NCBI GenBank assembly: GCA_018056545.1 | Contig: JAGPFL010000001.1 | Span: forward strand, 11,574-75,573 | DNA length: 64,000 nt | Reading direction: 5' to 3' | DNA from: Syntrophobacterales bacterium | Lineage (GTDB): Bacteria; Desulfobacterota; Syntrophia; Syntrophales; UBA8958 | In this document: positions 1,791 through 56,213 of the stretch, in pieces | Layout: each line of letters starts with the position of its first letter | How positions within the stretch are numbered: position 1 is the first letter of the stretch | Made by a program: the position numbers and the translations under genes | Notes under the pieces: generated by a model | Databases searched by the model: none | What the model was told of the DNA's origin: nothing | What the model saw: only the letters and a program-made list of their open reading frames with translations

Positions 1791-1808
1791 GTTTTTCAGG
1801 ATACGCCC

Positions 1809-2846
1809 TTACCCCCCACCCTCACCCAGTTCTGTGCAGACGGCAGCCTCTCTTGACTCTCTTATCTTCCATTGCTTTTCCGCTACCTGCTCTTTAACGA
1901 TCTCGAGGGTTTGATGTATGATCTCCGTCATGTCGCCGTCGATGTCCCCTTTGGCCTCCGCCAGAATGCCGTCGACGACCTTCCCCGCCAGTTCATGGAG
2001 GATATGGTCGTTTTCCGGCAGGTGAATGTCCTTGAAGACCTTGTCCAGGCTGTGAAAGGCGATGTCCGCCGCCATACTTTCCACCCGCCGGGAGATAAGT
2101 CTTCCGGCGCCGGGTATCTTTTCCAGAAGCCGGATGTCTTCGCTGCTGGTCAAGGCCTTGCGGATGCATCCTTCTATATAAACGCGCAGATCCTTTTCAA
2201 AGATCTCGTTCATGTCCCGGGCCACCAGCCGCAGCTTTTCCACGAGGAGTTCCGTGAGGACCTGGCGCCTCGGTCGGATCACCTCCCGGACGACTCTTTT
2301 CAGCAGCGGTGTCCCGGCCTGGAGCTCCCGCTGCATGTCCGTCAGGACATTGATCACGACCCGGTCGGAGATCTCCTCCATAATCACGTCCCGGTATTTG
2401 TGATATTTTCGGAAGAGGTAATGGTCGATGCGCACCAGTTTCTGGAGTCGGGCGAAAAAGGCGATGAGCCGGAGAAGACGCAGCCACCGGAATCCGCCGG
2501 GGAGACTGCCCAGGAAATCGTAGATGTGTATGGCGGGATAGAAAAACCCGCGGTGATACTCCTTCCAGTGGACGGACAATCCCCAACGGAGGAAAAATTC
2601 CAGGAGGAAGATTACGGCGAAGACCAGATCGTAAGACCAGTATTTTACATGGATGGGTTCGTAAAAGCGGTACAGCCGCGTCAGGTTTTCCCGGACGAAT
2701 TCGTGGAAGGGCGGGAAGGAGAAGGTCCAGTCGCAGACCATCCAAGCGAGGTTCACCAGCAGGATGACGATCATGACGCCGTCGATCATGATCATGATCT
2801 TCAGGCGTTTCTGGCCTTCGGTATGGCAGTTGGGCGGTTGGTTCAA
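1809..2846 (-). CDS. Voltage-sensor-domain (S1-S4) protein of the ion-transport family lacking a pore module, with ~215-aa cytosolic helical domain
   Basis: 345-aa ORF with four TM segments, including S2-like YDLVFAVIFLLEFFLRW, S3-like IHIYDFLGSLP and Arg-periodic S4 FRWLRLLRLIAFFARLQKL. No S5-P-S6 follows. The stop lies 18 nt upstream of the SpeE-like gene start on the same strand. Confidence 0.65.
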   Translation of the reverse strand: MNQPPNCHTEGQKRLKIMIMIDGVMIVILLVNLAWMVCDWTFSFPPFHEFVRENLTRLYRFYEPIHVKYWSYDLVFAVIFLLEFFLRWGLSVHWKEYHRGFFYPAIHIYDFLGSLPGGFRWLRLLRLIAFFARLQKLVRIDHYLFRKYHKYRDVIMEEISDRVVINVLTDMQRELQAGTPLLKRVVREVIRPRRQVLTELLVEKLRLVARDMNEIFEKDLRVYIEGCIRKALTSSEDIRLLEKIPGAGRLISRRVESMAADIAFHSLDKVFKDIHLPENDHILHELAGKVVDGILAEAKGDIDGDMTEIIHQTLEIVKEQVAEKQWKIRESREAAVCTELGEGGG

Positions 2847-3049
2847 CGTCGCTCCTCACACGGAGACCTTTGAAAAACGGCTGCGCTGCAGTTCAGAAAT
2901 CTTTTTTTTCTTTGTACGGGTAACGTATAACTCTTATTCATGGCCGATACCATTTTCCCGAGGTTATGTTGAGCTTACACACCTTTCCCCGATTGTTTTC
3001 TCTCGGCCAAATACCAAGCCCAGCGGCATCGTGGCAACATGCAGGGCTT

Positions 3050-3079
3050 TTGTCAATGGCAAATTTCATTGTTGATTAT
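3050..3079 (+). promoter_or_regulatory. Candidate sigma70-type promoter for the atoE leader (TTGTCA-18-GATTAT)
   Basis: Hexamers read directly in the AT-rich intergenic region. The match to consensus is only moderate. Confidence 0.3.
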
Positions 3080-3175
3080 TTGTTTCTTTTCCTGTAGAGT
3101 TCCTCCGGTTTAATAGCGACTTGCTTCTCCGATCATCAACACCTACGGGAGGGGTTATGAGGATGAGGTTCAAGA

Positions 3176-3210
3176 AATCCGCGTCAGTGTTTGACGGCGG
3201 ATTTTTTTAT
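3176..3210 (+). terminator. Intrinsic terminator / attenuator hairpin inside the atoE leader
   Basis: AATCCGCGTCA-gtgtt-TGACGGCGGATT stem-loop (one bulged base) followed by TTTTTTTATTTT. It ends about 37 nt upstream of the atoE ATG. Confidence 0.55.
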
Positions 3211-3246: not shown

Positions 3247-4602
3247 ATGTTAAGAAAACTTGCGTCATTCTTTACCTACGTTATGCGTCATTATCTACCC
3301 GACGCCTACCTGTTTGCCATCCTGCTGACGTTTATCTCGGCGGTCCTGGCCCTGATCTTCACGCCGGCGGACGTCTTGAAAGTGATCACCACCTGGGGTG
3401 ATGGGATCTATGGAATCATCGCCTTTGCCATGCAGATGATCCTCATCCTGGTAACGGGATACGTCCTGGCCCTGACACCGCCCATGAAGAAGGTCCTCGA
3501 TTGGGTGGCGGAAATGGCCGACACCCCCGTCAAGGGGGCGATGATCGTCGCCTTCGTGGGCGGCGTGGGCTCCTGGATCAACTGGGGCTTCGGCCTCATC
3601 TTCGCGGGGCTCCTGGCCCTGGAGGTCGCCCGTCGCACCAAGAAGGCCGATTTTCCCGTCCTCGTCGGTGCCGCCTATAGCGGGTTCATCTGCTGGCACA
3701 TGGGGTTCTCCAGCTCCATCGGGCTCCTGCTGGCCACGCCCAAGGCACCCCAGAACCTCATCGAAAAGATCACGGGCAAGGTTGTACCGGTATCCGATAC
3801 GATCTTTGCGACCTGGAACCTGATTCCCGCCGCGATCATCATCCTCGGTCTCCCGGTGCTCTTCTATCTGATTCATCCCAAGGAGGAAGATACGATCAGC
3901 ATCTCCCCGGAACGTCTCAAGGAGATGGAAGGACAGACCGTCAAGGTTGAACGGCCGGCGAATCCCACCCTGGCGGAGCGGATCGACCACAGCTATGTGG
4001 TCAACATGATCTTCGCCGCTATGGGCGTCTTCTACCTCTTACTCCACTTCTCCAAGAAGGGCCTGGATCTCAATCTGAACATCGTGATCTTTATTTTCTT
4101 CATCGCCGGTGTCATCCTCCATGCCAAACCTATCAATTACGTAAACGCTATGAATATCGCCATCCGGTCCGCCGGCGGCATCGCCCTGCAGTTTCCCCTC
4201 TACGGCGGCATCATGGGGATCCTCATCGGCACCGGCCTGGCCAAGGTCATCGCCGGGTGGTTCGTGGCCATTTCCACGCCGGAAACCTTTTACATGTTCC
4301 AGTTCTGGGGGGCCGGGGTGGTCAATATGTTCGTCCCCTCCGGCGGCGGTCAGTGGGCCGTTCAGGGACCCATCACCATCGAGGCGGCGAAGATGATGAA
4401 CATCGATACCGTCAAATCGGCGATGATGGTGGCCTGGGGGGACCAGTGGACCAATATGATCCAACCCTTCTGGGCCCTGCCGCTGCTGGGACTGGCGGGA
4501 CTCTCGGCCAAGGAAATCATGGGTTACACCACCATGACGCTGCTCTGGGCCGGGCTGGTTTTGAGCGGTTTCGCCCTGCTTATCGGTTTCGGGGTGATGT
4601 GA
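3247..4602 (+). CDS. atoE: Short-chain fatty acid transporter (AtoE family)
   Basis: 451 aa, polytopic, colinear with E. coli AtoE as I recall it (WGDG..., AFxMQMxLIxVTG, VPSGGGxWxxQGP, GDQWTNMIQPFWALP). AGGAGGAGG RBS 7 nt upstream of the ATG. Confidence 0.85.
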   Translation: MLRKLASFFTYVMRHYLPDAYLFAILLTFISAVLALIFTPADVLKVITTWGDGIYGIIAFAMQMILILVTGYVLALTPPMKKVLDWVAEMADTPVKGAMIVAFVGGVGSWINWGFGLIFAGLLALEVARRTKKADFPVLVGAAYSGFICWHMGFSSSIGLLLATPKAPQNLIEKITGKVVPVSDTIFATWNLIPAAIIILGLPVLFYLIHPKEEDTISISPERLKEMEGQTVKVERPANPTLAERIDHSYVVNMIFAAMGVFYLLLHFSKKGLDLNLNIVIFIFFIAGVILHAKPINYVNAMNIAIRSAGGIALQFPLYGGIMGILIGTGLAKVIAGWFVAISTPETFYMFQFWGAGVVNMFVPSGGGQWAVQGPITIEAAKMMNIDTVKSAMMVAWGDQWTNMIQPFWALPLLGLAGLSAKEIMGYTTMTLLWAGLVLSGFALLIGFGVM

Positions 4603-36422: not shown

Positions 36423-37373
36423 ATGCCGAATGCCGAGAAAAGTGTCGCGGTGGTCTTTCCCGGTCAGGGTGCCCAGCGTCCCGGGATGGGAAAGGATTTT
36501 TGTGAGTGTCTCAGCGTCTGCCGTCAGGCCTATGAAGAGGCCTCTTCAGCCTTGGGCTGGGATGTGGCCCGGATGTGTTTCGACGGGGATGAGCGGCTGG
36601 ATCAGACGGAATTTACCCAGCCGTGTCTTCTCACCACGGAAATCGCCATGTTTCGCGGTCTCAAGCACCTTTACGGGCTGTCCCCGGATTATTTCGGCGG
36701 CCACAGTCTGGGCGAATTCACCGCCCTGGTAGCGGCCGGCGTCCTGCCGCTGGGACAGGCGGCCGTCATCGTTCATACCCGGGGCCGGCTCATGCAGCAG
36801 GCCGTGCCTCTGGGCTTGGGAAGCATGGCGGCCGTCATCGCCGACGGCCTCGACGCCGAGGAACTGGAAGGTGCCCTGGCAGGTCTGCCCGTGGATATCG
36901 CCAACGTCAATTCCCCGCGGCAGATCGTCATCAGTGGTGATGCCGGGGCGCTTCCCGACGCGGCGGTGCGGATTACGGACATTCTCGGTGCCGACGCCGC
37001 CTGCCGTTTCGTTCCTCTCAACGTGAGCGCCCCGTTCCACAGCCGTTTCATGCGGCCGGTGGAACGGGAATTTTCGGGGGTTCTGAAGGCCGTGAGTGAG
37101 TGCTTGAACCCCCAACGGGCCTCGGCGGTCACCTCGAATTACACCGGCCGCTTCCATACCCGCTACCGGGAGGATCTCCTGTGCTACCTCACCTATCAAT
37201 TGGGCAGCCGGGTGCGGTGGCGGGAGAACATGGAAATCCTTGCAGCCGAGGCCGACGAGATTTACGAGATCGGTCCGGGGCGCCCCCTGCGGGATTTTTT
37301 CAAGACCATCGGCGTCAACTGCCTTTCCGTGACCACCCTTTCGGCGGCGGCACGGATCTTCGGGAGCAACTGA
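36423..37373 (+). CDS. fabD: Malonyl-CoA:ACP transacylase
   Basis: ORF 36336..37373, with the start moved to ATG 36423 (GGAGA RBS). VAVVFPGQGAQRPGMG, GHSLGEF nucleophile, SAPFHS. Confidence 0.85.
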   Translation: MPNAEKSVAVVFPGQGAQRPGMGKDFCECLSVCRQAYEEASSALGWDVARMCFDGDERLDQTEFTQPCLLTTEIAMFRGLKHLYGLSPDYFGGHSLGEFTALVAAGVLPLGQAAVIVHTRGRLMQQAVPLGLGSMAAVIADGLDAEELEGALAGLPVDIANVNSPRQIVISGDAGALPDAAVRITDILGADAACRFVPLNVSAPFHSRFMRPVEREFSGVLKAVSECLNPQRASAVTSNYTGRFHTRYREDLLCYLTYQLGSRVRWRENMEILAAEADEIYEIGPGRPLRDFFKTIGVNCLSVTTLSAAARIFGSN

Positions 37374-37378
37374 AAACT

Positions 37379-38578
37379 ATGGACTTCAATTTATCGGATC
37401 AGCAACGGTCCTATGTGGAAACGGTGCGCCGGTTCGTCCGGGGAGAGATCCTTCCCCACAGCCTGGCGATGGACCGGCGGCACGAGTTTCCCTACGGGAT
37501 CATCCGTCAGGCCTGGGAACTGGGGATCCTCAATCTGAGCATCCCCGCCGCCGTCAAGGGTTACGAACTGGATACCGTTTCCTCCGCCCTGATTATCGAG
37601 GAGCTGTCCTACGGCGATTCCGGAATCGCCACCTCAGCCATGTGCAACGATCTGGCCAACGCCGTCATCGCCCAGCATGGCACGGATGAGCAACAGGAGA
37701 CCCTGTTGCGACCCTTTGTGGAAAAGCCGCTGCTGGCCTCCTTCTGCCTGACGGAGCCGGGCGCCGGTTCGGACAACAGTGCTATGACCACCTTCATTAA
37801 ACGCCGGGAGGACGGTTCCTATCTCCTCAACGGGTCCAAATGTTTCATAACCAATGCCTCCTTCGCCTCCCAGTTCACCGTCTTCGCCAAGGTGGGGAAG
37901 CCGACGGGAAATTTCATGGCCTGCCTCGTCGTGCCGGTTCCGGCGCCGACGCCGGAGGAGGTGGCGGGCGGTTTCCCCTCCGGGCGGGAGATCGTCCTGG
38001 CCGGCGGCGGGCGGATCAGCGTGGGACGGCCGGAAGACAAGCTGGGACAGCGCCTTTCCAACACCGCCGCTGTGACTTTTGAAGAGGTGATCGTCTCGCC
38101 GGAGCAGATCATCGGAGACCGGAGGCTGGGATTCCGTTATGTCATCGACGTCCTCGACTACGCCCGGCCTATGGTGGCGGCCATCGGCGTCGGCCTGGCC
38201 CGCCGGGCCCTCGATTTGACCCTGAACTATACCCGGGAACGCAAGCAGTTCGGTCAGCGGGTCTGCGACCTGCCCGTGGCCCGGGAGACCCTGACGGCCA
38301 TGTGGAAGAAGGTGGAACTGGCGGAAATGGCCCTGATGAAGGCGGCCTGCTGTCTCCAGGAGAAACGGGAAGACCGGGGCCTCTACGCCTCCCTGGCGAA
38401 GAATACCGCCGCCGAGGCGGCCCTCTTCTGCGCCAACGAGGGGCTCCATCTTCACGGGGGTTACGGCTTCATGACGGAATACGAGATCTCGAAACTGGCC
38501 CGGGACGCCCACATCATCGATATCTATGAAGGGGTCCGAGAGGTGCAGAACATGATCATCGGCCGGGAGATCTGCTGA
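37379..38578 (+). CDS. Acyl-CoA (or acyl-ACP) dehydrogenase family flavoprotein
   Basis: ORF 37100..38578, with the start moved to ATG 37379, 6 nt after the fabD stop. MDFNLSDQQRSYVETVRRF..., CLTEPGAGSD, C-terminal catalytic-Glu region IYEGVREVQ. Carries a ~30-aa insertion (VPVPAPTPEEVAGGFPSGREIVLAGGG). Confidence 0.8.
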   Translation: MDFNLSDQQRSYVETVRRFVRGEILPHSLAMDRRHEFPYGIIRQAWELGILNLSIPAAVKGYELDTVSSALIIEELSYGDSGIATSAMCNDLANAVIAQHGTDEQQETLLRPFVEKPLLASFCLTEPGAGSDNSAMTTFIKRREDGSYLLNGSKCFITNASFASQFTVFAKVGKPTGNFMACLVVPVPAPTPEEVAGGFPSGREIVLAGGGRISVGRPEDKLGQRLSNTAAVTFEEVIVSPEQIIGDRRLGFRYVIDVLDYARPMVAAIGVGLARRALDLTLNYTRERKQFGQRVCDLPVARETLTAMWKKVELAEMALMKAACCLQEKREDRGLYASLAKNTAAEAALFCANEGLHLHGGYGFMTEYEISKLARDAHIIDIYEGVREVQNMIIGREIC

Positions 38579-38580
38579 GC

Positions 38581-39594
38581 ATGCTCTATCTCCACGGCTT
38601 GGGTCATTTCCATCCGGAAAACGTGATCACCAATCGCTTCCTCGAAGAGCTGGACATCGGGACGAGCAATGAGTGGATTCTGGAGCGGGTGGGGATTCGG
38701 GAGCGTCGCACCGCCTTGGATCTGGACTACATCCGGGAAACCAGAAACCGGGATCCCCGGGCGGCGGGGGAGGCAAGTCTTTGCTCCAACGCCCGGGCGG
38801 GCGCAGCGGCGGCACGGCAGGCCCTGACCCGGGCCGGGATTGCCGCGGCGGATGTGGGACTGGTGATCTCCGGGAGCTCGGCGCCGGATCACGTCACCCC
38901 TTCCGAGGCGGCCACCGTGGCGGCGGAGCTGGAAATCGAGGCCCCCTGCCTGGACATCAACGCCGCCTGTGCCACCTTCGGCGTCCAGTTGAGCATTCTG
39001 GACCGGATGAAACCGGAAAGCCTGCCTCCCTTCGTGTTGGTGGTGAACCCGGAAAGCCTCACCCGCTGTATCGATTACGGGGATCGCAACACGGCGGTCC
39101 TCTTCGGTGACGGCAGCGCCGCCGCCGTCGTCTCCGCCCGGGAACCTGCCGCGCTGCGGCTGGTGGCCTGTGACTGCGCCTCGAAGCCGGCGGCCTGGCA
39201 AAAGGCCGTCATCCCCCGGACGGGCTACTTCCGGCAGGAAGGCAACGCCGTCCAGGGGTTTGCCATTCGCAAAATGACCGAGGCGGTCCGGTCTTTTCAG
39301 AATGGCGGTCCGGAGGGGGGGAGGCGGCCGATTTTCATCGGCCATCAGGCGAACCTCGGCATCCTGGAAACCGTCCGTGAGCGGGCGTCCATCCCGGGGG
39401 ACCGCCATTGGCACAATGTGACTATGTTCGGCAATACGGGCTGCTCCGGCGCCCCGGCCGTGCTCAGCCAGCACCGGCGGGAGCTGCAACCGGGGGACTG
39501 GGTGATCATGGCCCTGGTCGGGGCGGGTTTGACCTGGGCGACGCTGGTCTGGCATGTGGCCGGACAGGGGGAAGATAAGGAGGAGACGGGGTGA
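38581..39594 (+). CDS. FabH-like 3-oxoacyl-ACP synthase III
   Basis: 337 aa, starting 3 nt after the ACAD stop. Cys-His-Asn triad contexts INAACATF, GHQANLG, FGNTGCSG. Confidence 0.8.
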   Translation: MLYLHGLGHFHPENVITNRFLEELDIGTSNEWILERVGIRERRTALDLDYIRETRNRDPRAAGEASLCSNARAGAAAARQALTRAGIAAADVGLVISGSSAPDHVTPSEAATVAAELEIEAPCLDINAACATFGVQLSILDRMKPESLPPFVLVVNPESLTRCIDYGDRNTAVLFGDGSAAAVVSAREPAALRLVACDCASKPAAWQKAVIPRTGYFRQEGNAVQGFAIRKMTEAVRSFQNGGPEGGRRPIFIGHQANLGILETVRERASIPGDRHWHNVTMFGNTGCSGAPAVLSQHRRELQPGDWVIMALVGAGLTWATLVWHVAGQGEDKEETG

Positions 39595-39685
39595 AGAACG
39601 GCAACGAGGGAAAAAGGCCCGTCTTCGGCCCGGCGCTTCTTCCCTGGAAGAAGAGGGGGTGTCGGTACCTACCGCGAGGTTATCA

Positions 39686-40279
39686 ATGCTGACTTACGGA
39701 GATTTCACCCGGAAAAATGCCTTCAACCTGAACGAGCTGATCGCTTTTTCCTACGGGAGACTCGTGGCGGACCCTCCCCCGGGCTTCGAGGCCCGGTTGC
39801 CCGCCCCGCCTTTCCTCATGATCGACCGCATCCTCCGGATGGAGGCGGACGGAAAACGGGGCAGGATCGTCGCGGAGCAGGATATCCGCCTGGATGCCTG
39901 GTATTTTCAGTGTCACATGCCCGGCGATCCCGTACAGCCGGGATGCCTGGGCGTGGATGCCGTCTGGCAACTCCTGGGATTCTACGGGGCTTGGCGCGGC
40001 GGCCTGGGGGCCGGGCGGGCTCTGGGTTGCGACGGGGTGACCTTCAACGGACAGATCCGGCCCCATCACCGCGTCGTGCGATACGAGGTCGCCGTCCGGC
40101 GGTTTTCCGCCCTTACGGAATCAGGGGCGAGCGTCATTATCGGTGACGGGGTCATCTCCGTGGACGGAGAACCGGTCGCCGAGGTGCAGCAGGCCCGCAC
40201 CGGCCTCTTCCGGGATATCGTCTATGGGGACTACCCCCGGACGGACCATGACGGCGGGCGGCAAATGATGAAATCATGA
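39686..40279 (+). CDS. fabA: FabA-type 3-hydroxyacyl-ACP dehydratase/isomerase
   Basis: ORF 39554..40279, with the start moved to ATG 39686. Colinear with E. coli FabA as I recall it: LPAPPFLMIDRILRM, WYFQCHMPGDPVQPGCLGVDAVWQLLGFYGAWRGG.GAGRALG (active-site His and Asp contexts kept). Confidence 0.8.
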   Translation: MLTYGDFTRKNAFNLNELIAFSYGRLVADPPPGFEARLPAPPFLMIDRILRMEADGKRGRIVAEQDIRLDAWYFQCHMPGDPVQPGCLGVDAVWQLLGFYGAWRGGLGAGRALGCDGVTFNGQIRPHHRVVRYEVAVRRFSALTESGASVIIGDGVISVDGEPVAEVQQARTGLFRDIVYGDYPRTDHDGGRQMMKS

Positions 40280-40378
40280 GGACACTTTCCCTATTTCTTG
40301 TTATGCAAGTGGTTGAATAATTTAATCATTCGTTGTGCCCGTCTTTAGGCATGGCGATTACCATGAAACAGGGGGAAG

Positions 40379-40397
40379 AATCCGGACGGTCCGGATT
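40379..40397. repeat. Perfect 19-bp palindrome between fabA and fabG (candidate operator or RNA hairpin)
   Basis: AATCCGGAC-G-GTCCGGATT read directly, 30 nt upstream of the fabG-like ATG, inside a 147-nt comparatively AT-rich gap in an otherwise tightly packed operon. Confidence 0.5.
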
Positions 40398-40426
40398 TCC
40401 ATCCCCGATGTGAGGCTGATTTATCC

Positions 40427-41155
40427 ATGGAAGATAAGAAGGTGGCAGTTATTACCGGCGGGGGCTCCGGGATCGGGGCCGCTTGTGTCCGGGCGCTGGC
40501 GGCCCGGGGATTTTGGGTGGGGATCCATTACCGCCGCCGCGCAGAGGCGGCCCGAGCCCTGCTGGCCGAGGTGGGGGAAGGGTTTCTCCTGTCCGGCGAT
40601 CTGACCCGCAGCGAGGACATCGATGCCCTGATCGAGAGCATCAAGACCGCGGCCGGTCGCCTGGATGTGTTGGTGCACAACGCCGGTTTCTCCCTCAATG
40701 GGGACATCAACGCCATGCGCCTGGAACAGTTCGACGCCCAGCGGCTCCTGGCCAGGGGGGTCTGGTATCTCACCAAACGGGCGCTCCGCCAGTTCATGCT
40801 CCGCCGCAACGAGGGGCGGATCATCACGATCTCCAGCGTCGTGGGCCATACGGGCAACAGCGGTCAGATCCCTTATACTATGGAAAAGGCGGCCCTCGAC
40901 GCCTTCACGAAATCCCTGGCCAAAGAGCTGGCGGGGCGCAATATCCTCGTCAACGCCGTCGCCCCCGGCTTCATTGACACGGAGATGACGGCGACGCTCC
41001 CCGCAGAGGTCCGGGAGCGGATCATGGCCAACATTCCCCTGCAGCGTATGGGGCGGCCGGAGGAGGTGGCGGAGGCGGTGGCCTTCCTGGCTATGGGCGG
41101 TACCTATATCAACGGATCGGTTCTGCATGTAAACGGAGGTCTTTATGGAGGCTGA
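40427..41155 (+). CDS. fabG: 3-oxoacyl-ACP reductase (SDR)
   Basis: 242 aa. VAVITGGGSGIGAA, NAGF, S...Y..EKAAL catalytic context, PGFIDTEMT, ending GSVLHVNGGLY. Confidence 0.8.
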   Translation: MEDKKVAVITGGGSGIGAACVRALAARGFWVGIHYRRRAEAARALLAEVGEGFLLSGDLTRSEDIDALIESIKTAAGRLDVLVHNAGFSLNGDINAMRLEQFDAQRLLARGVWYLTKRALRQFMLRRNEGRIITISSVVGHTGNSGQIPYTMEKAALDAFTKSLAKELAGRNILVNAVAPGFIDTEMTATLPAEVRERIMANIPLQRMGRPEEVAEAVAFLAMGGTYINGSVLHVNGGLYGG

Positions 41156-41627
41156 CCGGCGCCTGCGGGAAATGGTTCTCCAGGCCGTTCCCCAGCAACC
41201 CCCCTTTCGCTTCCTCGACGAGATCCGGGAAATGGACGCCGAGGGAATCGTCGGCGCCTATCGCTTCCGGCGGGATGAATATTTCTACCGGGGGCATTTT
41301 CCCGGGCGGCCGGTGACTCCCGGGGTGATCCTCATCGAGGCCATGGCCCAGACCGGGGTCGTGGCCCACGGTCTTTACCTGTCTCTGTTGCAGGAGGGAA
41401 ACGGCGGCGAGGAATGGAGAAAACTAACCACGCTGTTTACCCTGGCCGAAGAGGTGGAATTTCTGGGCATAGTCGTTCCCGGGGAGCTGATCGTCCTCCG
41501 GGGGCGCAAACTATATTTTCGCCGGAACAGCCTGAAGGCCGCCGTGACGGCGGAGCGGGAAAACGGCGAGATGGTCTGTCGGGGAACCCTGGCCGGCATG
41601 GGGGGTAAGATGATTCATGAAGGATGA
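41145..41627 (+). CDS. FabZ-like hotdog-fold 3-hydroxyacyl-ACP dehydratase
   Basis: 160 aa. PPFRFLDEI...YRGHFPGRPVTPGVILIEAMAQTG. GGAGG RBS; overlaps the fabG end by 11 nt. Confidence 0.75.
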   Translation: MEADRRLREMVLQAVPQQPPFRFLDEIREMDAEGIVGAYRFRRDEYFYRGHFPGRPVTPGVILIEAMAQTGVVAHGLYLSLLQEGNGGEEWRKLTTLFTLAEEVEFLGIVVPGELIVLRGRKLYFRRNSLKAAVTAERENGEMVCRGTLAGMGGKMIHEG

Positions 41628-41640
41628 GGGTGGCGGGAAA

Positions 41641-42921
41641 ATGAAAAAAAGAGTGGTGATCACGGGCATGGGGGTGGCCGCCCCCAATGCCCACGGGTTG
41701 GAGGATTTTGCCGTGGCCCTCCGGGAGGGACGTTCGGGCATCCGGCACATCCGGGAACTGGCCGAGTTGAACTTTGCCTGTCAGGTCGGGGGTATTCCGG
41801 AGAATTTCGAGGCCATTCGCCGGAGTTATTTCGATCACGAAAAGCTCATGTCCATCAACGACAATATCGGTTACGCCTCCGTGTCCGCCATCGATGCCTG
41901 GCGGGACGCCGGTTTCGCCGTTCCCGAAGGGGACGGCGGGGAGGTGGACTGGGACACGGGGGTGATCCTCGGCTCGGGCATCGGCGGCATGGACACCATC
42001 GCCCGGACCGTCGTCCCCATGGTGAACGAGGGCAAGGTCCGCCGCATGGGAAGCCGCATCGTGGAACAGGTGATGAACAGCGGCACGAGCGCCCGGATCG
42101 CCGGACTGCTGGCCCTGGGCAATCAGGTCACCTCCAATTCCTCGGCCTGCTCCACGGGCAACGAGGCCATCATCGAGGCCATGTGGCGGATTCGCACGGG
42201 CCTGGCAAAGCGGATGCTGGCCGGAGGTTCCGAGGGAGCCTCCCCTTACATCTGGTCCGGGTTCGACGCCATGCGGGTGATCTGCCGGAAATTCAACGAG
42301 GAACCGGAACGGGCCTCCCGCCCCATGAGCGCCAGCGCCGCCGGCTTTGTCCCCGGCGCCGGGGGTGCCGTGCTGGTGCTCGAGGAACTGGAAACGGCCC
42401 GGCGCCGGGGGGCGCGGATCTATGCCGAGATCGCCGGGGGGGCGGTGAACTGCGGCGGTCAGCGCCGCGGCGGGTCCATGACGGCCCCGAATCCCGAAGG
42501 GGTGCGCCGGTGCATCCAGGGGGCCATCGCCGACGCCGCCGTTTCCCCCGGAGACATCCAGGCGATCAACGGTCACCTCACGGCCACCTATGCGGATCCC
42601 ATGGAGGTGAAGAACTGGGCCGCCGCCCTGGAAAGATCCCCGGAGGATTTTCCCTACATCAACTCGACGAAGTCCCTGATCGGCCATTGTCTCGGGGCTG
42701 CAGGGGCCATCGAATCGGTGGCCGTGGTCCTGCAGCTCCACCGGGGATTTCTCCATCCTTCGGTGAACAGCGAGGATATTCATCCCGAGATCGCGGCCTT
42801 CGGCCACAAGGTGCCCCAGCGGGCAATGGACATGCCGGAGCTGCGGGTGATCGCCAAGGCGGGCTTCGGCTTCGGAGACGTGAACAGTTGTCTGATTTTC
42901 AAAAAGTGGGAAGATAATTGA
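41641..42921 (+). CDS. Beta-ketoacyl-ACP synthase I/II (FabB/FabF-like)
   Basis: ORF 41617..42921; probable start ATG 41641 (MKKRVVITGMGV). Active-site contexts SSACSTGNEAI, NGHLTAT, KSLIGHCLGAAGA. Confidence 0.8.
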   Translation: MKKRVVITGMGVAAPNAHGLEDFAVALREGRSGIRHIRELAELNFACQVGGIPENFEAIRRSYFDHEKLMSINDNIGYASVSAIDAWRDAGFAVPEGDGGEVDWDTGVILGSGIGGMDTIARTVVPMVNEGKVRRMGSRIVEQVMNSGTSARIAGLLALGNQVTSNSSACSTGNEAIIEAMWRIRTGLAKRMLAGGSEGASPYIWSGFDAMRVICRKFNEEPERASRPMSASAAGFVPGAGGAVLVLEELETARRRGARIYAEIAGGAVNCGGQRRGGSMTAPNPEGVRRCIQGAIADAAVSPGDIQAINGHLTATYADPMEVKNWAAALERSPEDFPYINSTKSLIGHCLGAAGAIESVAVVLQLHRGFLHPSVNSEDIHPEIAAFGHKVPQRAMDMPELRVIAKAGFGFGDVNSCLIFKKWEDN

Positions 42922-42999
42922 GACCCGGGGAGACAGGTTTCCCCAAACGGCGCCGGCGGCAATGCCGGCATGTGAATAAATCATATCGAGGAGATTAAA

Positions 43000-43248
43000 A
43001 TGGAAGAGACGCAAATTCTCAAGGAAATGATAGAGATTCTGAGGCTCTACGCCAAGGACAAAACGAAACTGGACCAGGCGGGGATGGACACCCACATCCT
43101 CGATGACCTCAAGGTCAATTCCGCCCGGCTGGTGGATGTGATCATCAAGTGCGAAGACGTCTTCGGAATCACCATCGAAGACGACGAGGCCGACAAGATC
43201 CGTACCATCGGCGACGCCGTGAACCTGATCGGGAAGAAACTCGGTTAA
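43000..43248 (+). CDS. Divergent acyl carrier protein
   Basis: 82 aa with GAGGAG RBS. Four-helix ACP pattern, with LKVNSARLVDV replacing the usual LGxDSLDxVEL around the phosphopantetheine Ser. Confidence 0.7.
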   Translation: MEETQILKEMIEILRLYAKDKTKLDQAGMDTHILDDLKVNSARLVDVIIKCEDVFGITIEDDEADKIRTIGDAVNLIGKKLG

Positions 43249-43286
43249 GCCTTACTGGATTTACCGAGGAAAAAAGGCGGGGGAGG

Positions 43287-44147
43287 ATGAAGGAAAGCGG
43301 GGATAAACTGCCAAGGGGAGCGGGCTTCTCGCTGCGCCTCCAGGCGGCCCTGGGGATGCTTGCCGTGGGAATCGTAGCGCCGCTGTATTTTCTCTTCCTG
43401 AGATGGCGGGGATACCGGGTCCGGGATCTGGCGGCGACACGCCGCCGCTGGGCGGAACTGCGCCGTGAACATCCGGGACCGTGGCTGATCTGCGGGAATC
43501 ACCTCACCCTCATCGATTCGGCGCTCATCACCTATGCCCTCATGTCCCTGGGGAGTCATTTCACCGAGTTCCGGGCCATTCCCTGGAATCTTCCGGAGCG
43601 GGCGAATTTTCAGCGGCAGCTCTGGAAAGCGGCGCTCTGCTATCTGGCGAAATGCATCCCCGTCAGCCGGGGCGGAGATCGGGGGGAGATGCAGGCCACC
43701 CTGGCGAAATGCCGCCAGGTCCTGATGTGGCGGCAACTGCTCATGATCTTTCCGGAAGGAGGGCGTTCCCGCACCGGTCGGGTCGATCAGGAGAACTTTT
43801 CCTACGGCGTAGGCCGTTTTCTCCAGGAGCACCATGATTGCCGGGTGCTCTGTGTCTATCTCCGGGGGGACGGCCAGGAGATATACGGCGACCTGCCGGC
43901 CCGGGGCGAGAGCTTCACCATCGCCATTGAGGCCTTTACCCCCCGGCGCCCGGAGAGAGAAGGACTGCGGGGACAGCGGGATCTGGCGGGGCAGATCGTC
44001 GCCCGCCTGGTCCGCATGGAGGAGGAATATTTTGCTCGTCATCGGCAACGACATCGTGGATTTGACGGCGCCGGAGAACCGGGGAAAGAGTGGGGACCGG
44101 CGCTTTCGCGCCCGCGTCTTCACGGCGGCGGAGGAGGAATGGATTGA
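43287..44147 (+). CDS. PlsC/LPLAT-family (lysophospholipid-type) acyltransferase
   Basis: ORF 43149..44147, with the start moved to ATG 43287 (GGGAGG RBS). N-terminal TM, HX4D motif in CGNHLTLIDS, FPEGGRSRTG motif. The last ~38 codons overlap the next gene. Confidence 0.75.
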   Translation: MKESGDKLPRGAGFSLRLQAALGMLAVGIVAPLYFLFLRWRGYRVRDLAATRRRWAELRREHPGPWLICGNHLTLIDSALITYALMSLGSHFTEFRAIPWNLPERANFQRQLWKAALCYLAKCIPVSRGGDRGEMQATLAKCRQVLMWRQLLMIFPEGGRSRTGRVDQENFSYGVGRFLQEHHDCRVLCVYLRGDGQEIYGDLPARGESFTIAIEAFTPRRPEREGLRGQRDLAGQIVARLVRMEEEYFARHRQRHRGFDGAGEPGKEWGPALSRPRLHGGGGGMD

Positions 44148-44919
44148 CGCCGCCCCGTCGCCCGACACCGCCCTCTGGACGCTCTGGGCGGCCAAGGAGG
44201 CGGCCTTCAAGACGGCGGTCAAGCTCAAGCCCGGACTGACCTTCCGTCACCGGGAATACGCCGTTACCAATCTGCCGCCGGCGGACTTCTCCGGATCGGT
44301 TTGCGCCGGTGCAGACCGGAGCGACCCCCGGTCAGTTCCTGCGGATTGGGTATGGGTACAATCGGTTGTTGCAGGACAAGGAGGTAAGCATGCCGACGGC
44401 AGGGTAAGCACGGATTTACCTTTCCAGGGACCATGTTTCCCCGATGGCGCCGAACAAGCAACGGAAAGCAGGAAAGGGCGGCAGTTACCTGCAGGGGTGG
44501 CGGTGGCTGGGAGCGGCACCGCACCCCTTTCGGGCTACGGCGCCGTTATGACCCCGGCGGGTTTGGTGGACGTCCTTTTTTCCGTGTCGCCCTTCCGGGT
44601 CCACTGCCTGGCCCTGGGGGGAAACGGCCACGGCACGGGAAAAAAAAGAGAACCGCGGCTCCATTGGCAGGAGGAGAGGCGCAGCGGAGTTTTCGATCCC
44701 TCCGGGGCCGTCCGCCGGGCGGCCATTCATTATCTGGCCGAGGTCTTGCGCACCTCTCCATATTTTCTCGCCATTCGCCGTCCCCGGACGACCTCGGGAG
44801 AAGGCGGGACGCCGCGGGTCTTTCTGGAGGGACGGGAAACCGACATCGACCTCAGCCTTACCCACGACGGGGCCTACCTCGCCTTCGCCGTCCGTCTCGG
44901 ACATGACGCCGGGGAATAA
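44032..44919 (+). CDS. 4'-phosphopantetheinyl transferase superfamily protein (AcpS-like core with long insertion)
   Basis: ORF 43834..44919. The proposed TTG 44032 start (GGAGGAGG upstream) gives LLVIGNDIVDL..., WAAKEAAFK, and a C-terminal DIDLSLTHDGAYLAFAV. About 150 non-conserved residues lie between the motifs. Confidence 0.65.
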   Translation: MLVIGNDIVDLTAPENRGKSGDRRFRARVFTAAEEEWIDAAPSPDTALWTLWAAKEAAFKTAVKLKPGLTFRHREYAVTNLPPADFSGSVCAGADRSDPRSVPADWVWVQSVVAGQGGKHADGRVSTDLPFQGPCFPDGAEQATESRKGRQLPAGVAVAGSGTAPLSGYGAVMTPAGLVDVLFSVSPFRVHCLALGGNGHGTGKKREPRLHWQEERRSGVFDPSGAVRRAAIHYLAEVLRTSPYFLAIRRPRTTSGEGGTPRVFLEGRETDIDLSLTHDGAYLAFAVRLGHDAGE

Positions 44920-54458: not shown

Positions 54459-56213
54459 ATGAGGAAGATACAGAGGATCTTGATCGCCAACCGGGGCGAG
54501 ATCGCCTTGCGGATCATCAGGACCGTCCGGGAGATGAATATCGAGGCCGTGGCCATTTATGAAAAGCAGGACCGCGATGCTTACTTTCACCGCTTTGCCG
54601 ACCGGGTCGTCCAGATCGGCGACGAACCCAACCGGGGTTATCTGGATATGGAGCGGATCATTCGGGCCGCCGTCAACACCGGCGCCGATGCCATACACCC
54701 CGGATACGGTTTCCTGGCGGAGAACGCCGATTTTGCCCAGGCCTGCCAGGAGGCGGGGATCGTCTTCATCGGCCCGCCCCCGGCGGTGATCCGTGATCTG
54801 GGGAACAAGGTTTATGCCCGGCAGATGATGGCCAAGGCCGGCATTCCCGTGGTGCCCGGTACGGAGAGCCTGCCGGCGGGCCGGGAGGGTATCGAGGCGG
54901 CATCGGACTTTGCCGCCCGGGCCGGTTACCCGATTATTCTCAAGGCAACGGCAGGCGGCGGCGGCCGTGGGGTAAGAAGGATCAACAATGAGCAGGAGCT
55001 GAAGCTCAACATGTCTTCGGCCCGGGCGGAGGCCCTGGCGGCCTTCCACGACGACCGCGTCTATGCCGAGAAGTATGTGGAGAAACCCCGGCATGTGGAG
55101 GTGCAGATCCTGGCCGACCGTTACGGACATGTCGTCCATCTGGGGACGAGGGATTGCTCCATCCAGCGACGGCACCAGAAACTGCTGGAGATCGCCCCTG
55201 CCGGCCTGCCCGGTGCGGTCTGCGACCAGCTCCAGGAGGCGGCGGTGCTGGCGGCCGTAACCGCCGGATATGTAAATGCGGGCACGGTGGAATTCCTCGT
55301 CGATTCCCGGACTCATGATTTCTGGTTCATGGAGGTGAACACCCGCCTCCAGGTCGAACACACGGTCACGGAGATGATCACGGGCGAGGACTTGGTGCAG
55401 GAGCAGATCCGTATCGCCGAGGGACGCCCCCTCCAGATCCGCCAGGAAGAGGTGCGCCTGCACGGCATCGCCATCGAGGTGCGCATCAACGCCGAAGATC
55501 CCAAAAACAACTTTCTTCCCGAGGGCGGCAAACTCATCGAGGTCTATAACCCACCGGGAGGGCCGGGCATCCGGGTGGACGGCAATGTTTACAAGGGTTA
55601 TGTCGTCCCGTCCGTCTATGATTCCCTTCTGGCGAAACTCATCGTCTGGGGGTACGAATGGGAGCAGACGGTCAACCGCCTCCGCCGGTCCCTGAGGGAT
55701 TTCACCATCGTCTGGCCGAAAACGACCATTCCCCTGTATCTGTCCATCTGCGACGAACCAGATTTCCAAAACAGGATTTTCGATACGGCTTATCTGGACG
55801 AGCATCCTCAAATCTTCCAGTATCCCGAAGCGGAGCATTATGTCCTGGACGATGCCGTCTATAAACTGCTGCTGGCCCCCCATGAGGGGATGGAAGGCAG
55901 GTCGGAAGAGGATATGGCGAGGGATCGCGAGCCGGGTTGGTGGCAGCACCGGCGGATTCTCACCCCTCAGGATATCGAGGAACTAAAAAGGGAAGGGGTC
56001 GTCAAATCCTCCATCAAGGGGAAGGTTACGGATATCCTGGTGGAGGTCGGTGACGAGGTTATGGTTGGGGATGTCCTCGTGGATCTGGAGGCGATGAAGA
56101 TGCACACCCACGTCATCTGTGAGGTGGACGGCAAGGTAACGGATATCCTCATCGAACCCGGAGATGCCGTGGACGTGGGCGATACGCTGGTGATGGTCAA
56201 GGTGGGCCGGTAG
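54459..56213 (+). CDS. Biotin carboxylase fused to a C-terminal biotinyl (BCCP) domain (acyl-CoA/pyruvate carboxylase alpha-type subunit)
   Basis: 584 aa. ILIANRGEIA, GYGFLAEN, KATAGGGGRGVR, MEVNTRLQVEHTVTE. C-terminal LEAMKMHT biotin-lysine motif. Confidence 0.85.
   Translation: MRKIQRILIANRGEIALRIIRTVREMNIEAVAIYEKQDRDAYFHRFADRVVQIGDEPNRGYLDMERIIRAAVNTGADAIHPGYGFLAENADFAQACQEAGIVFIGPPPAVIRDLGNKVYARQMMAKAGIPVVPGTESLPAGREGIEAASDFAARAGYPIILKATAGGGGRGVRRINNEQELKLNMSSARAEALAAFHDDRVYAEKYVEKPRHVEVQILADRYGHVVHLGTRDCSIQRRHQKLLEIAPAGLPGAVCDQLQEAAVLAAVTAGYVNAGTVEFLVDSRTHDFWFMEVNTRLQVEHTVTEMITGEDLVQEQIRIAEGRPLQIRQEEVRLHGIAIEVRINAEDPKNNFLPEGGKLIEVYNPPGGPGIRVDGNVYKGYVVPSVYDSLLAKLIVWGYEWEQTVNRLRRSLRDFTIVWPKTTIPLYLSICDEPDFQNRIFDTAYLDEHPQIFQYPEAEHYVLDDAVYKLLLAPHEGMEGRSEEDMARDREPGWWQHRRILTPQDIEELKREGVVKSSIKGKVTDILVEVGDEVMVGDVLVDLEAMKMHTHVICEVDGKVTDILIEPGDAVDVGDTLVMVKVGR

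Follow-up and report, generated by a model that had tools for sequence, protein, structure and literature searches.

A type II fatty-acid synthesis cassette conserved across Syntrophales includes an acyl-CoA dehydrogenase family flavoprotein as candidate enoyl-ACP reductase

We analysed a 64,000-nt stretch of Syntrophobacterales DNA (contig JAGPFL010000001.1, positions 11,574 to 75,573 of the forward strand; hereafter the window) that carries a cassette of ten genes related to type II fatty-acid synthesis (FAS). All ten lie on the + strand at window positions 36423–44919, with coordinates unchanged from those of an initial annotation made from the sequence alone, and Pfam and NCBIfam profile scans together with the translations bore out the families and intact motifs assigned there. 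The cassette opens with fabD, encoding a 316-aa malonyl-CoA:acyl carrier protein (ACP) transacylase (36423–37373, +), and continues with a 399-aa flavoprotein of the acyl-CoA dehydrogenase (ACAD) family, here considered a candidate enoyl-ACP reductase (37379–38578, +), a 337-aa FabH-like beta-ketoacyl-ACP synthase (KAS) III (38581–39594, +), a 197-aa FabA-type 3-hydroxydecanoyl-ACP dehydratase/isomerase (39686–40279, +), a 242-aa FabG-like 3-oxoacyl-ACP reductase (40427–41155, +), a 160-aa FabZ/ApeI-like 3-hydroxyacyl-ACP dehydratase (41145–41627, +), a 426-aa FabF/FabB-like KAS I/II (41641–42921, +; alternative start 41617), an 82-aa private ACP (43000–43248, +), a 286-aa acyltransferase of the lysophospholipid acyltransferase (LPLAT)/PlsC superfamily with an N-terminal hydrophobic segment (43287–44147, +) and a 295-aa 4′-phosphopantetheinyl transferase (PPTase) read from a TTG start (44032–44919, +). 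Successive gaps measure 5, 2, 91, 147, −11, 13, 78, 38 and −116 nt, the gap of 13 nt before KAS I/II becoming −11 nt with the alternative start. Identical copies of the cassette proteins are encoded on contig JAHZTK010001025.1 of a metagenome-assembled genome (MAG; GCA_020047475.1) and on contigs of three other samples. Scans of the window for Rfam families and tRNAs gave no match, and a promoter/terminator scan was uninformative.

Profile scores, quoted in bits against the NCBIfam equivalog cut-offs, separated FabA from the other core synthesis proteins. FabA was the only one to pass an equivalog cut-off (NF003509, 191.8 bits over 124; 157.7 bits on TIGR01749, under 238). It is 40% identical to E. 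coli FabA and retains the His70 and Asp84 contexts, which lie in an alignable stretch of 22 residues in each protein. FabD (PF00698, E = 3.6e-29) reached 236 bits on TIGR00128 (cut-off 261) and is, on profile scores, the most canonical-looking member after FabA. KAS III (PF08545/PF08541) scored 199 bits on NF006829 (cut-off 249), FabG (PF13561/PF00106) 228 bits on TIGR01830 (cut-off 298) and the FabZ-like dehydratase (PF07977, E = 1.2e-16) 75 bits on NF000582 (cut-off 113), precomputed Pfam matches relating the last to ApeI-like and, weakly, to ApeP-like proteins. KAS I/II (PF00109/PF02801) obtained 295 bits on TIGR03150 (cut-off 494) and 254 bits on the FabB model, and the ACP (PF00550, E = 6.8e-6) 49.8 bits on its best NCBIfam ACP model (cut-off 66). 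Catalytic motifs are nevertheless intact: as read from the translations, KAS III keeps its Cys, His and Asn motifs, FabG its S...YxxxK signature and KAS I/II its Cys-His-His motifs, and the dehydratase retains its His and Glu. Taken together, these sub-threshold scores indicate that the cassette genes are diverged paralogs and not textbook housekeeping genes.

The three proteins at the end of the cassette point to a dedicated system with its own carrier, carrier-activating enzyme and acyltransferase, in agreement with what had been proposed. The D-S-L triplet around the phosphopantetheine Ser is near-universal in ACPs; the cassette ACP has N-S-A around the presumed attachment Ser instead, and the motif LKVNSARLV recurs in 58 of 59 orthologs. 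The LPLAT matches PF01553 (E = 4.5e-12; 46.4 bits, cut-off 23) and contains HLTLID and FPEGGR; HLT[LM][IV]D (the HX4D motif) and FPEGxR co-occur in 58 of the 59 orthologs examined. Its best NCBIfam matches, to Aas and PlsC models, are weak, and 23.9 bits on the PlsC subfamily model TIGR00530 (cut-off 103) indicate that it is not a canonical PlsC. Sequence searches of the PDB returned no significant relative of this protein, and the structure predicted from its sequence alone was of too low confidence to be used (mean pLDDT 39). At the level of the family, a lyso-lipid-type molecule would be the candidate class of acceptor.

The PPTase gene starts 116 nt before the end of the LPLAT gene, with GGAGGA upstream of its TTG codon. 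Its product matches PF01648 (E = 1.7e-11; 44.5 bits, cut-off 25), has the GxD...KEA..K core and aligns through its N-terminal 60 aa with residues 5–64 of E. coli AcpS (hhalign E = 5.7e-5); scores far below the cut-offs of the AcpS equivalog models mark it as other than a canonical AcpS. The public gene caller missed this gene on the matching MAG contig and annotated an ORF of 139 aa in antisense to it (44485–44904, −). Orthologous loci keep a + strand ORF in this position; its product is ~210 aa long there and was called with PF01648 in two of them (L087 and L090). The window protein carries an in-frame, low-complexity and lineage-specific insertion of ~65 aa, around which its N- and C-terminal motifs align to the orthologs. 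The domain match, the upstream GGAGGA and the positional conservation show the + strand PPTase gene to be real despite the missing public call.

The second gene encodes the most distinctive member of the cassette. All three ACAD domains (PF02771, PF02770 and PF00441) exceed their cut-offs, and the IYEGVREVQ segment is present in the window protein and, identically or with one residue changed, in 77 of 80 ACAD orthologs. Aligned to human medium-chain acyl-CoA dehydrogenase (MCAD), the catalytic Glu (E376) is invariant in 76 orthologs, and the residues corresponding to Y375, T168 and R256 are invariant within the Syntrophales ACADs. At the positions that we take to form the docking surface and electron path in the human complex between MCAD and electron-transfer flavoprotein (ETF) (F23, L61, L73, I83, E34, W166 and E212), the 76 orthologs have Y, I/L, Y/F, I, E, F and E, a conservative set that serves as a lead and not as a test. 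The best PDB match is MCAD (1.9e-72). Among NCBIfam models, acryloyl-CoA reductase AcrC ranks first with 254 bits, far under its cut-off of 640, and the model of MbtN-type acyl-ACP dehydrogenases is not matched (NF037942, 40.1 bits against 700). By sequence alone the protein thus resembles a generic ACAD, whereas its evolutionary position is not generic.

No FabI-, FabK-, FabL- or FabV-type gene occurs in the window, as the initial annotation had noted and as Pfam confirmed over its whole length (precomputed matches for 8.4–64 kb and our own scan for 1–8.4 kb). The only short-chain dehydrogenase/reductase (SDR) is the FabG-like protein, and neither the cassette nor the window encodes an NPD/NMO-type FMN-domain protein.

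To place the cassette in its lineage, the ACAD was searched against one genome per GTDB species, which gave 157 relatives, and the best 80 loci were compared with the ten window proteins by tblastn. These best 80 of 157 loci belong to MAGs labelled Syntrophales, Syntrophus, Smithella, ‘delta proteobacterium’ and, in one case, ‘Pseudomonadota bacterium’; the closest named homologs of the cassette proteins are from Syntrophales, Syntrophaceae and Smithellaceae. In nearly every locus of sufficient length the order is ACAD, KAS III, (FabA), FabG, dehydratase, KAS, ACP, LPLAT and PPTase, and further metagenome loci, again of Syntrophales, carry the syntenic cassette as well. Recurrence of this order in ~80 independent genomes excludes chance.

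Presence was counted over the 63 complete loci that span ACAD to LPLAT, with median identities given relative to the window. Five families occur in all 63: the ACAD (74%), the FabZ-like dehydratase (60%), KAS (76%), the ACP (71%) and the LPLAT (51%). FabH and FabG are each found in 61 of 63 (60% and 69%), the PPTase in 58 of 63 at ≥38% identity (median 47%), FabD, as neighbour of the ACAD, in 46 of 63 (58%) and FabA in 37 of 63 (64%). Of the five loci without a PPTase at that level, three (L012, L047 and L060) have weaker matches of 26–30% at the same position. ACAD identity ranges from 65 to 92% over the complete loci and from 62 to 92% over all fetched loci, and KAS identity from 73 to 89% across the order. 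The ACAD and KAS III genes are adjacent in 61 of 63 loci, their stop and start codons lying 2 nt apart in the window.

The cassette varies between lineages. Smithella-type cassettes lack FabA, and in about 25 Smithella loci a carboxyltransferase resembling PycB, OadA and the 5S transcarboxylase subunit lies between FabD and ACAD (L034, 8462–9874). This carboxyltransferase, which scores 633 bits on NF006761 and has no biotinyl domain, may be linked to malonyl-CoA supply. A Smithella subclade also conserves, just downstream of the cassette, a 459-aa protein of FMN-reductase/flavodoxin fold and a second FabG-like SDR (L034, 17000–19195); of the two, the flavin reductase could serve the ACAD as redox partner. 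FabD is missing within 10 kb in a monophyletic ‘fen’ group of Syntrophaceae, KAS III is missing from L048 and L050, and no FabG stands between FabA and the FabZ-like dehydratase in L089 and L090 (13198–14357; GCA_002383495.1 and a JGI contig). Three Smithellaceae loci (L040, L067 and L077), from the MAGs DAOLNX01, DAOTJI01 and CAZBGE01, hold only FabD, ACAD and a second SDR at the site (L077, 11289–12056), so that the ACAD is retained beside FabD even though the rest of the cassette is not adjacent. In L076 (7730–14394) the genes after an ACAD ortholog of 67% identity are just FabA and a SAM methyltransferase; ketosynthase (KS), nitroreductase, ACP, SDR and dehydratase genes form a set of their own nearby on the minus strand. 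The initial annotation had described the cassette as self-contained. This holds for the carrier protein, the PPTase and the LPLAT, which are its own; in other respects the cassette is less self-contained than proposed, since there are lineages without FabD, without FabH, without FabG or without FabA, and FabD and FabH may be shared with housekeeping synthesis.

A search of 1.84 billion cluster representatives at 50% identity placed the cassette ACADs in a clade consisting of one full-length representative (72% identity, 664 bits) and fragments, the next full-length matches being at most 40% identical. Present in every syntenic cluster and set apart from ordinary ACADs, the protein thus behaves as the initial annotation would have it for a dedicated component. 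A single intermediate ACAD, P0325, is 48% identical over the matched stretches in the representative search and 38% identical by pairwise BLASTP. It is encoded on a contig of 30% GC (L091, 520–13719; ENA ERZ24794647) in the order ACAD, KAS III, FabA didomain, SDR, FabZ-like didomain, KAS, ACP and LPLAT, which matches that of the cassette and has the ACAD as first gene; a 1,586-aa multidomain fused acetyl-CoA carboxylase is encoded divergently upstream. This contig is further marked by a FabA–FabA tandem didomain, a FabZ–FabZ didomain, an enlarged KAS III (409 aa) and an ACP in which the D-S motif is the usual one. When P0325 was used to scan metagenomes, no second cassette of this type emerged; the matches were Syntrophales cassette loci and a few ACADs (L107, L109 and L110) that are 26–31% identical and had no cassette genes detected alongside. 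As it is retained in two very different lineages, the association between the ACAD and FAS genes is old.

Whether the cassette is simply the general fatty-acid synthase of these bacteria can be addressed with a 106-kb metagenome contig (L105; L103 is the identical sequence) that carries a complete cassette with an ACAD 74% identical to that of the window. About 8 kb upstream of the cassette and on the opposite strand, this contig encodes a yceD–rpmF–fabG–acpP–fabF cluster (104–3192), which represents one related lineage and not the genome of the window itself. YceD and RpmF match PF02620 and PF01783; AcpP scores 89.2 bits on TIGR00517 (cut-off 70.45), FabF 608 bits on TIGR03150 (cut-off 494) and FabG 268.6 bits on TIGR01830 (cut-off 297.75) and 229.2 bits on NF009466 (cut-off 222). 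Identity to the cassette counterparts is only 29% for the canonical AcpP (against the ACP), 34% for FabF (against the KAS) and 39% for FabG. This FabG seems to be ~20 residues short near its N-terminal cofactor-binding region, profile position 53 falling at residue 34. Because L105 carries a normal AcpP/FabF/FabG set in addition, the cassette is a second FAS system in at least this lineage; in at least one related genome it is thus not the only fab set, whereas being the only one would, by the initial annotation, have made it the housekeeping system.

The canonical cluster of L105 lacks plsX, fabH and fabD between rpmF and fabG, and the only FabD and KAS III visible on the contig are those of the cassette. 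A second FabD or FabH was not seen in 1.7 Mb of fetched loci, and in homolog searches seeded with FabD for a canonical context every match whose context was examined was linked to a cassette. The cassette FabD and perhaps KAS III may consequently serve both systems. These gaps also lend something to the view that the cassette is a plain housekeeping FAS whose ACP, AcpS-like PPTase and PlsC-like acyltransferase are the general ones of the cell, as do the high median identities across families (ACAD ~74%, KAS 76%, ACP 71%), the core-genome surroundings of the cassette in other genomes and the near-canonical FabD. We nonetheless consider it very improbable, given the co-occurrence on L105 of canonical AcpP and FabF above their cut-offs and a canonical-type FabG, the sub-threshold scores of all cassette proteins other than FabA, the invariant N-S-A in place of D-S-L in the ACP and the existence of cassettes without FabG, FabH or FabD, which imply complementing copies elsewhere in the genome. 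The canonical rpmF–plsX–fabH–fabD–fabG–acpP–fabF arrangement shares with the cassette its enzyme families and the chemistry of initiation and elongation, FabD and FabA being near-canonical in the latter; the cassette differs in gene order, in its N-S-A ACP and in the inclusion of ACAD, LPLAT and PPTase genes in the operon. In the literature searched on Syntrophus fatty-acid synthesis, ACP or FabI nothing useful was found, and an acyl-proteome paper does not mention FAS.

The interpretation that we tentatively favour, while granting that it could well prove wrong, is that the ten genes form a single operon encoding another type II FAS or elongase, largely orthogonal to a canonical AcpP/FabF/FabG system beside which it runs, in which the ACAD acts as the enoyl reductase, probably with ETF. 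The conserved genes supply a carrier and the enzymes for its activation, for condensation, dehydration and terminal acyl transfer, nearly always together with a ketoreductase. Enoyl reduction is the sole step of the cycle without an obvious catalyst and the ACAD is the sole invariant enzyme without an assigned role, which ranks it first as reductase. In this scheme the PPTase would convert the private ACP to its holo form, FabD would load malonate and KAS III would prime from acyl-CoA. The FabF/FabB-like KAS, the FabG-like reductase and the FabZ/ApeI-like dehydratase would make up the elongation cycle, and in Syntrophaceae FabA would divert part of the flux to cis-unsaturated chains. The clade-specific ACAD would use reduced ETF as electron source to reduce enoyl-ACP, much as the catabolic Syntrophus enzymes reduce enoyl-CoA, and the LPLAT would transfer the completed chain from the ACP onto a membrane acceptor of lyso-lipid type. 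We infer enoyl-ACP reduction by the ACAD from the gene content of the cassette and the Syntrophus precedent; the direction of its reaction, its thioester carrier and its electron donor, together with the nature of product and acceptor, are likewise proposals.

ACADs are reversible enzymes. Their reductive members, namely those of Syntrophus ‘enoyl-CoA respiration’ and the clostridial Bcd/EtfAB, AcrC and CarC, belong to the same family as the cassette ACAD; they differ in acting on CoA thioesters in catabolism, in being at most 40% identical to it and in not being encoded in an operon with ACP, KAS, ketoreductase and dehydratase genes. Within the same order, the Syntrophus enzymes provide a precedent for enoyl-thioester reduction with reduced ETF, as ACADs of S. 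aciditrophicus act physiologically as terminal ETF-dependent enoyl-CoA reductases (PMC8805022). In syntrophs the electrons of acyl-CoA oxidation (~−10 mV) are the hardest and costliest to dispose of (PMC8805022), and for this reason an ETF-linked enoyl-ACP reductase would offer a sink for them while saving NAD(P)H.

Several points weigh against a reductive ACAD in a second synthase. The described carrier-protein-linked ACAD homologs act as oxidants, and the nearest solved relative of the cassette ACAD is an ordinary MCAD, its sequence giving no sign of a preference for ACP over CoA. In none of the loci with visible genes does the cassette contain or adjoin an ETF gene. A FabI, FabK or FabV encoded elsewhere in the genome may perform the reduction, the search for such genes having covered the window, and the canonical cluster that makes the cassette a second system is known from one lineage only (L103 being identical to L105). 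Most of the papers retrieved on ‘acyl-ACP dehydrogenase’ deal with natural-product biosynthesis. An enoyl-ACP reductase of the ACAD type is not known: a 2022 review lists FabI, FabK, FabV, FabL, FabL2 and FabI2 as the only enoyl-ACP reductases and includes no ACAD type (PMC9260719).

A broader form of the reductase interpretation, which we regard as possible though doubtful, would make the ACAD an unrecognised class of FAD- and ETF-linked enoyl-ACP reductase and maybe the only enoyl reductase that Syntrophales have, for AcpP as well as for the private ACP. It fits an ACAD that is never lost, that is paired with FabD in the three reduced Smithellaceae loci and that is wedged between the very genes, fabD and fabH, that are absent from the rpmF cluster.

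The opposite direction of catalysis had been proposed in the initial annotation, in which the ACAD together with FabA would make a specially unsaturated chain. As an acyl-ACP dehydrogenase, the ACAD would oxidise a saturated ACP-bound chain to 2-enoyl-ACP, for isomerisation by FabA or the FabZ-like dehydratase and elongation by the KAS, a two-enzyme analogue of Helicobacter pylori FabX or of mycobactin MbtN. Characterised carrier-linked ACAD homologs being oxidants, the idea has family precedent, and the L076 ortholog lies directly beside FabA without the rest of the cassette; retention of the ACAD in every cassette, though a housekeeping reductase might exist elsewhere, would also suit a product-defining tailoring enzyme. 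FabX and MbtN are both flavoproteins that act oxidatively on ACP-bound chains in or near fatty-acid synthesis, and backward dehydrogenation of decanoyl-ACP by FabX feeds unsaturated fatty-acid synthesis (PMC8626469). FabX, however, is not an ACAD: it is a FabK/NPD-like protein with FMN and [4Fe-4S] that uses O2 as electron acceptor (PMC8626469), whereas strict anaerobes pay most for electrons near −10 mV (PMC8805022). MbtN is an ACAD, on whose model the cassette protein reaches only 40 bits against 700. FabA, moreover, is absent from 26 of the 63 cassettes and from the Smithella type altogether, whereas the ACAD is present in all, which means that unsaturation by ACAD and FabA together is not the conserved core of the system. 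Where FabA is present, a dehydrogenase would be redundant, since the cassette dehydratases already make trans-2-enoyl-ACP in each cycle, and the cycle would still be without a reductase. We therefore judge a desaturase role unlikely, and less parsimonious than the missing enoyl reductase, especially in strictly anaerobic syntrophs with reductive ACADs.

The ACAD could also be an ordinary acyl-CoA enzyme that makes or trims the primer of KAS III, for instance by converting an enoyl-CoA to a saturated starter, with a FabI, FabK or FabV elsewhere completing the cycle. Acyl-CoA is the default substrate of the family and MCAD the closest structure (1.9e-72); KAS III enzymes take acyl-CoA primers, and the close coupling and near-constant adjacency of the ACAD and KAS III genes would suit such a division of labour. 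Syntrophus, in addition, has an abundance of enoyl-CoA and acyl-CoA intermediates as well as of reductive ACADs (PMC8805022). Even so, the ACAD persists where KAS III is missing (L048 and L050) and beside FabD without an adjacent KAS III (L040, L067 and L077), the distant low-GC cassette of L091 keeps it as first gene, and its clade is sharply apart from catabolic ACADs yet 65–92% conserved, which would be unusual for primer supply. Primer formation is on this evidence quite unlikely.

Comparison with described systems shows that the module logic itself is known, the new feature being an ACAD as an integral part of a dedicated type II FAS-like lipid module. Mycobacterial FAS-II (fabD–acpM–kasA–kasB with mtFabH, MabA, HadABC and InhA) is likewise a second elongation system beside a primary synthase and, like the cassette, combines its own divergent ACP, condensing enzyme and FabD in one operon, with a KAS III linking acyl-CoA primers to it. 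Its enoyl reductase is InhA, a FabI-type SDR, whereas the only candidate in the cassette is the ACAD; the mycobacterial operon has no LPLAT or PPTase and its products are meromycolates. The cassette ACP scores 38 bits on the AcpM model (cut-off 146).

The rhizobial acpXL–fabZXL–fabF2XL–fabF1XL–adhA2XL–lpxXL cluster shares the logic of an ACP of its own that works with a dehydratase and KAS dedicated to the pathway and with an acyltransferase as the last enzyme, which delivers the special chain to a lipid. It makes the very-long-chain acyl group of lipid A, contains two FabF paralogs and an alcohol dehydrogenase, and lacks ACAD, FabD, FabH, FabA, FabG and PPTase, its reductases being borrowed from the housekeeping FAS. 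Its acyltransferase is of the LpxL/LpxXL type, that of the cassette an HX4D LPLAT (PF01553). On the ACP equivalogs NF005079 and NF003757 the cassette ACP reaches 18.6 bits (cut-off 83) and 29 bits (cut-off 65). Membership of the acpXL/lpxXL family was rejected on the PF01553 acyltransferase, the single KAS, the absence of an alcohol dehydrogenase and the low ACP scores.

Aryl-polyene clusters resemble the cassette in being type II and ACP-based, with ApeI/ApeP-like dehydratases, a FabG-like reductase, an LPLAT and no enoyl reductase. An aryl-polyene-like pathway, or a reductase-free one akin to type II polyketide synthases, would give a polyunsaturated product, either pigment or lipid, that the LPLAT anchors and for which the ACAD is a tailoring enzyme. 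The ApeI-like and weakly ApeP-like matches of the dehydratase, the occurrence of LPLATs in such clusters and the absence of a known reductase from the cassette speak for it. Set against this, the KAS scores as FabF/FabB (295 and 254 bits) and reaches only 110, 46 and 19 bits on NF006618, NF005084 and NF004798, which we take to be the aryl-polyene-type beta-ketoacyl-ACP synthase models. Aryl-polyene clusters have a KS/chain-length-factor pair, an adenylating starter enzyme, a glycosyltransferase, a thioesterase and LolA/MMPL export proteins; the cassette has a single KAS without a chain-length-factor partner, and none of the accessory genes occurs in or beside it in any lineage. It has instead a true FabA, FabD, a FabF/B-like KAS and the ACAD. 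An aryl-polyene-like product is accordingly the least probable of the explanations considered, and membership of these clusters was rejected on the single FabF/B-like KAS and the absent accessory genes. That the cassette belongs to neither of these two families, as had been suspected, thus stands. In the literature searched, whose coverage is incomplete so that this is absence of evidence only, we found no description or characterised equivalent of the gene combination.

Syntrophales such as Syntrophus and Smithella form a bottleneck in methanogenic carbon turnover and live near the thermodynamic limit. A second FAS with its own carrier, conserved throughout the order, points to an undescribed membrane or envelope lipid, which could be a biomarker. 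Should the ACAD be the enoyl reductase, it would represent a new enzyme class at a well-studied and drug-targeted step of bacterial lipid synthesis, and a direct redox link between fatty-acid breakdown, through the ETF pool, and fatty-acid synthesis. If it were the general reductase, lipid synthesis would consume high-potential ETF electrons from beta-oxidation in place of NAD(P)H. The cassette also suggests that a specialised operon can take in the housekeeping fabD and fabH genes, which blurs the split between primary and secondary FAS in annotation.

The initial annotation had pointed to the position of the cassette beside an exopolysaccharide (EPS) locus and cyclic di-GMP signalling genes. 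Neither the EPS locus nor the PAS/GGDEF genes, the beta-lactamase-fold protein or the FadD-like ligase travels with the cassette, which sits elsewhere among core genes (BacA, TIM, GAPDH and SecG, or LeuRS, LptE and S20). As the flanks differ in every lineage, the adjacency is accidental: the module is self-contained with respect to its surroundings, and its neighbourhood in the window carries no functional information. A functional link to any of these neighbours was rejected on this ground.

Other features of the window include a fused biotin carboxylase–biotin carboxyl carrier protein (BCCP) of 584 aa (54459–56213, +), whose best models are pyruvate carboxylase and AccC and which could be a supplier of malonyl-CoA or oxaloacetate; a separate 74-aa biotinyl/lipoyl protein is encoded beside it at ~56.7 kb (−). 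At 50.9–52.8 kb (+), beside groES/groEL, the gene of a protein with a 4Fe-4S ferredoxin domain precedes that of a Ni-hydrogenase-type cytochrome b; the pair may form a membrane redox module and is unlinked to the cassette in other genomes. By coordinate arithmetic the window reaches ~3.2 kb past the end of contig JAHZTK010001025.1 and so stems from a longer sibling contig. The first 3200 nt contain ORFs without Pfam matches, with a GC content of 63% in the first 2 kb, and the EPS/lipopolysaccharide glycosyltransferase region has at its edge a short-chain fatty-acid transporter (3247–4602, +; PF02667, 459 bits).

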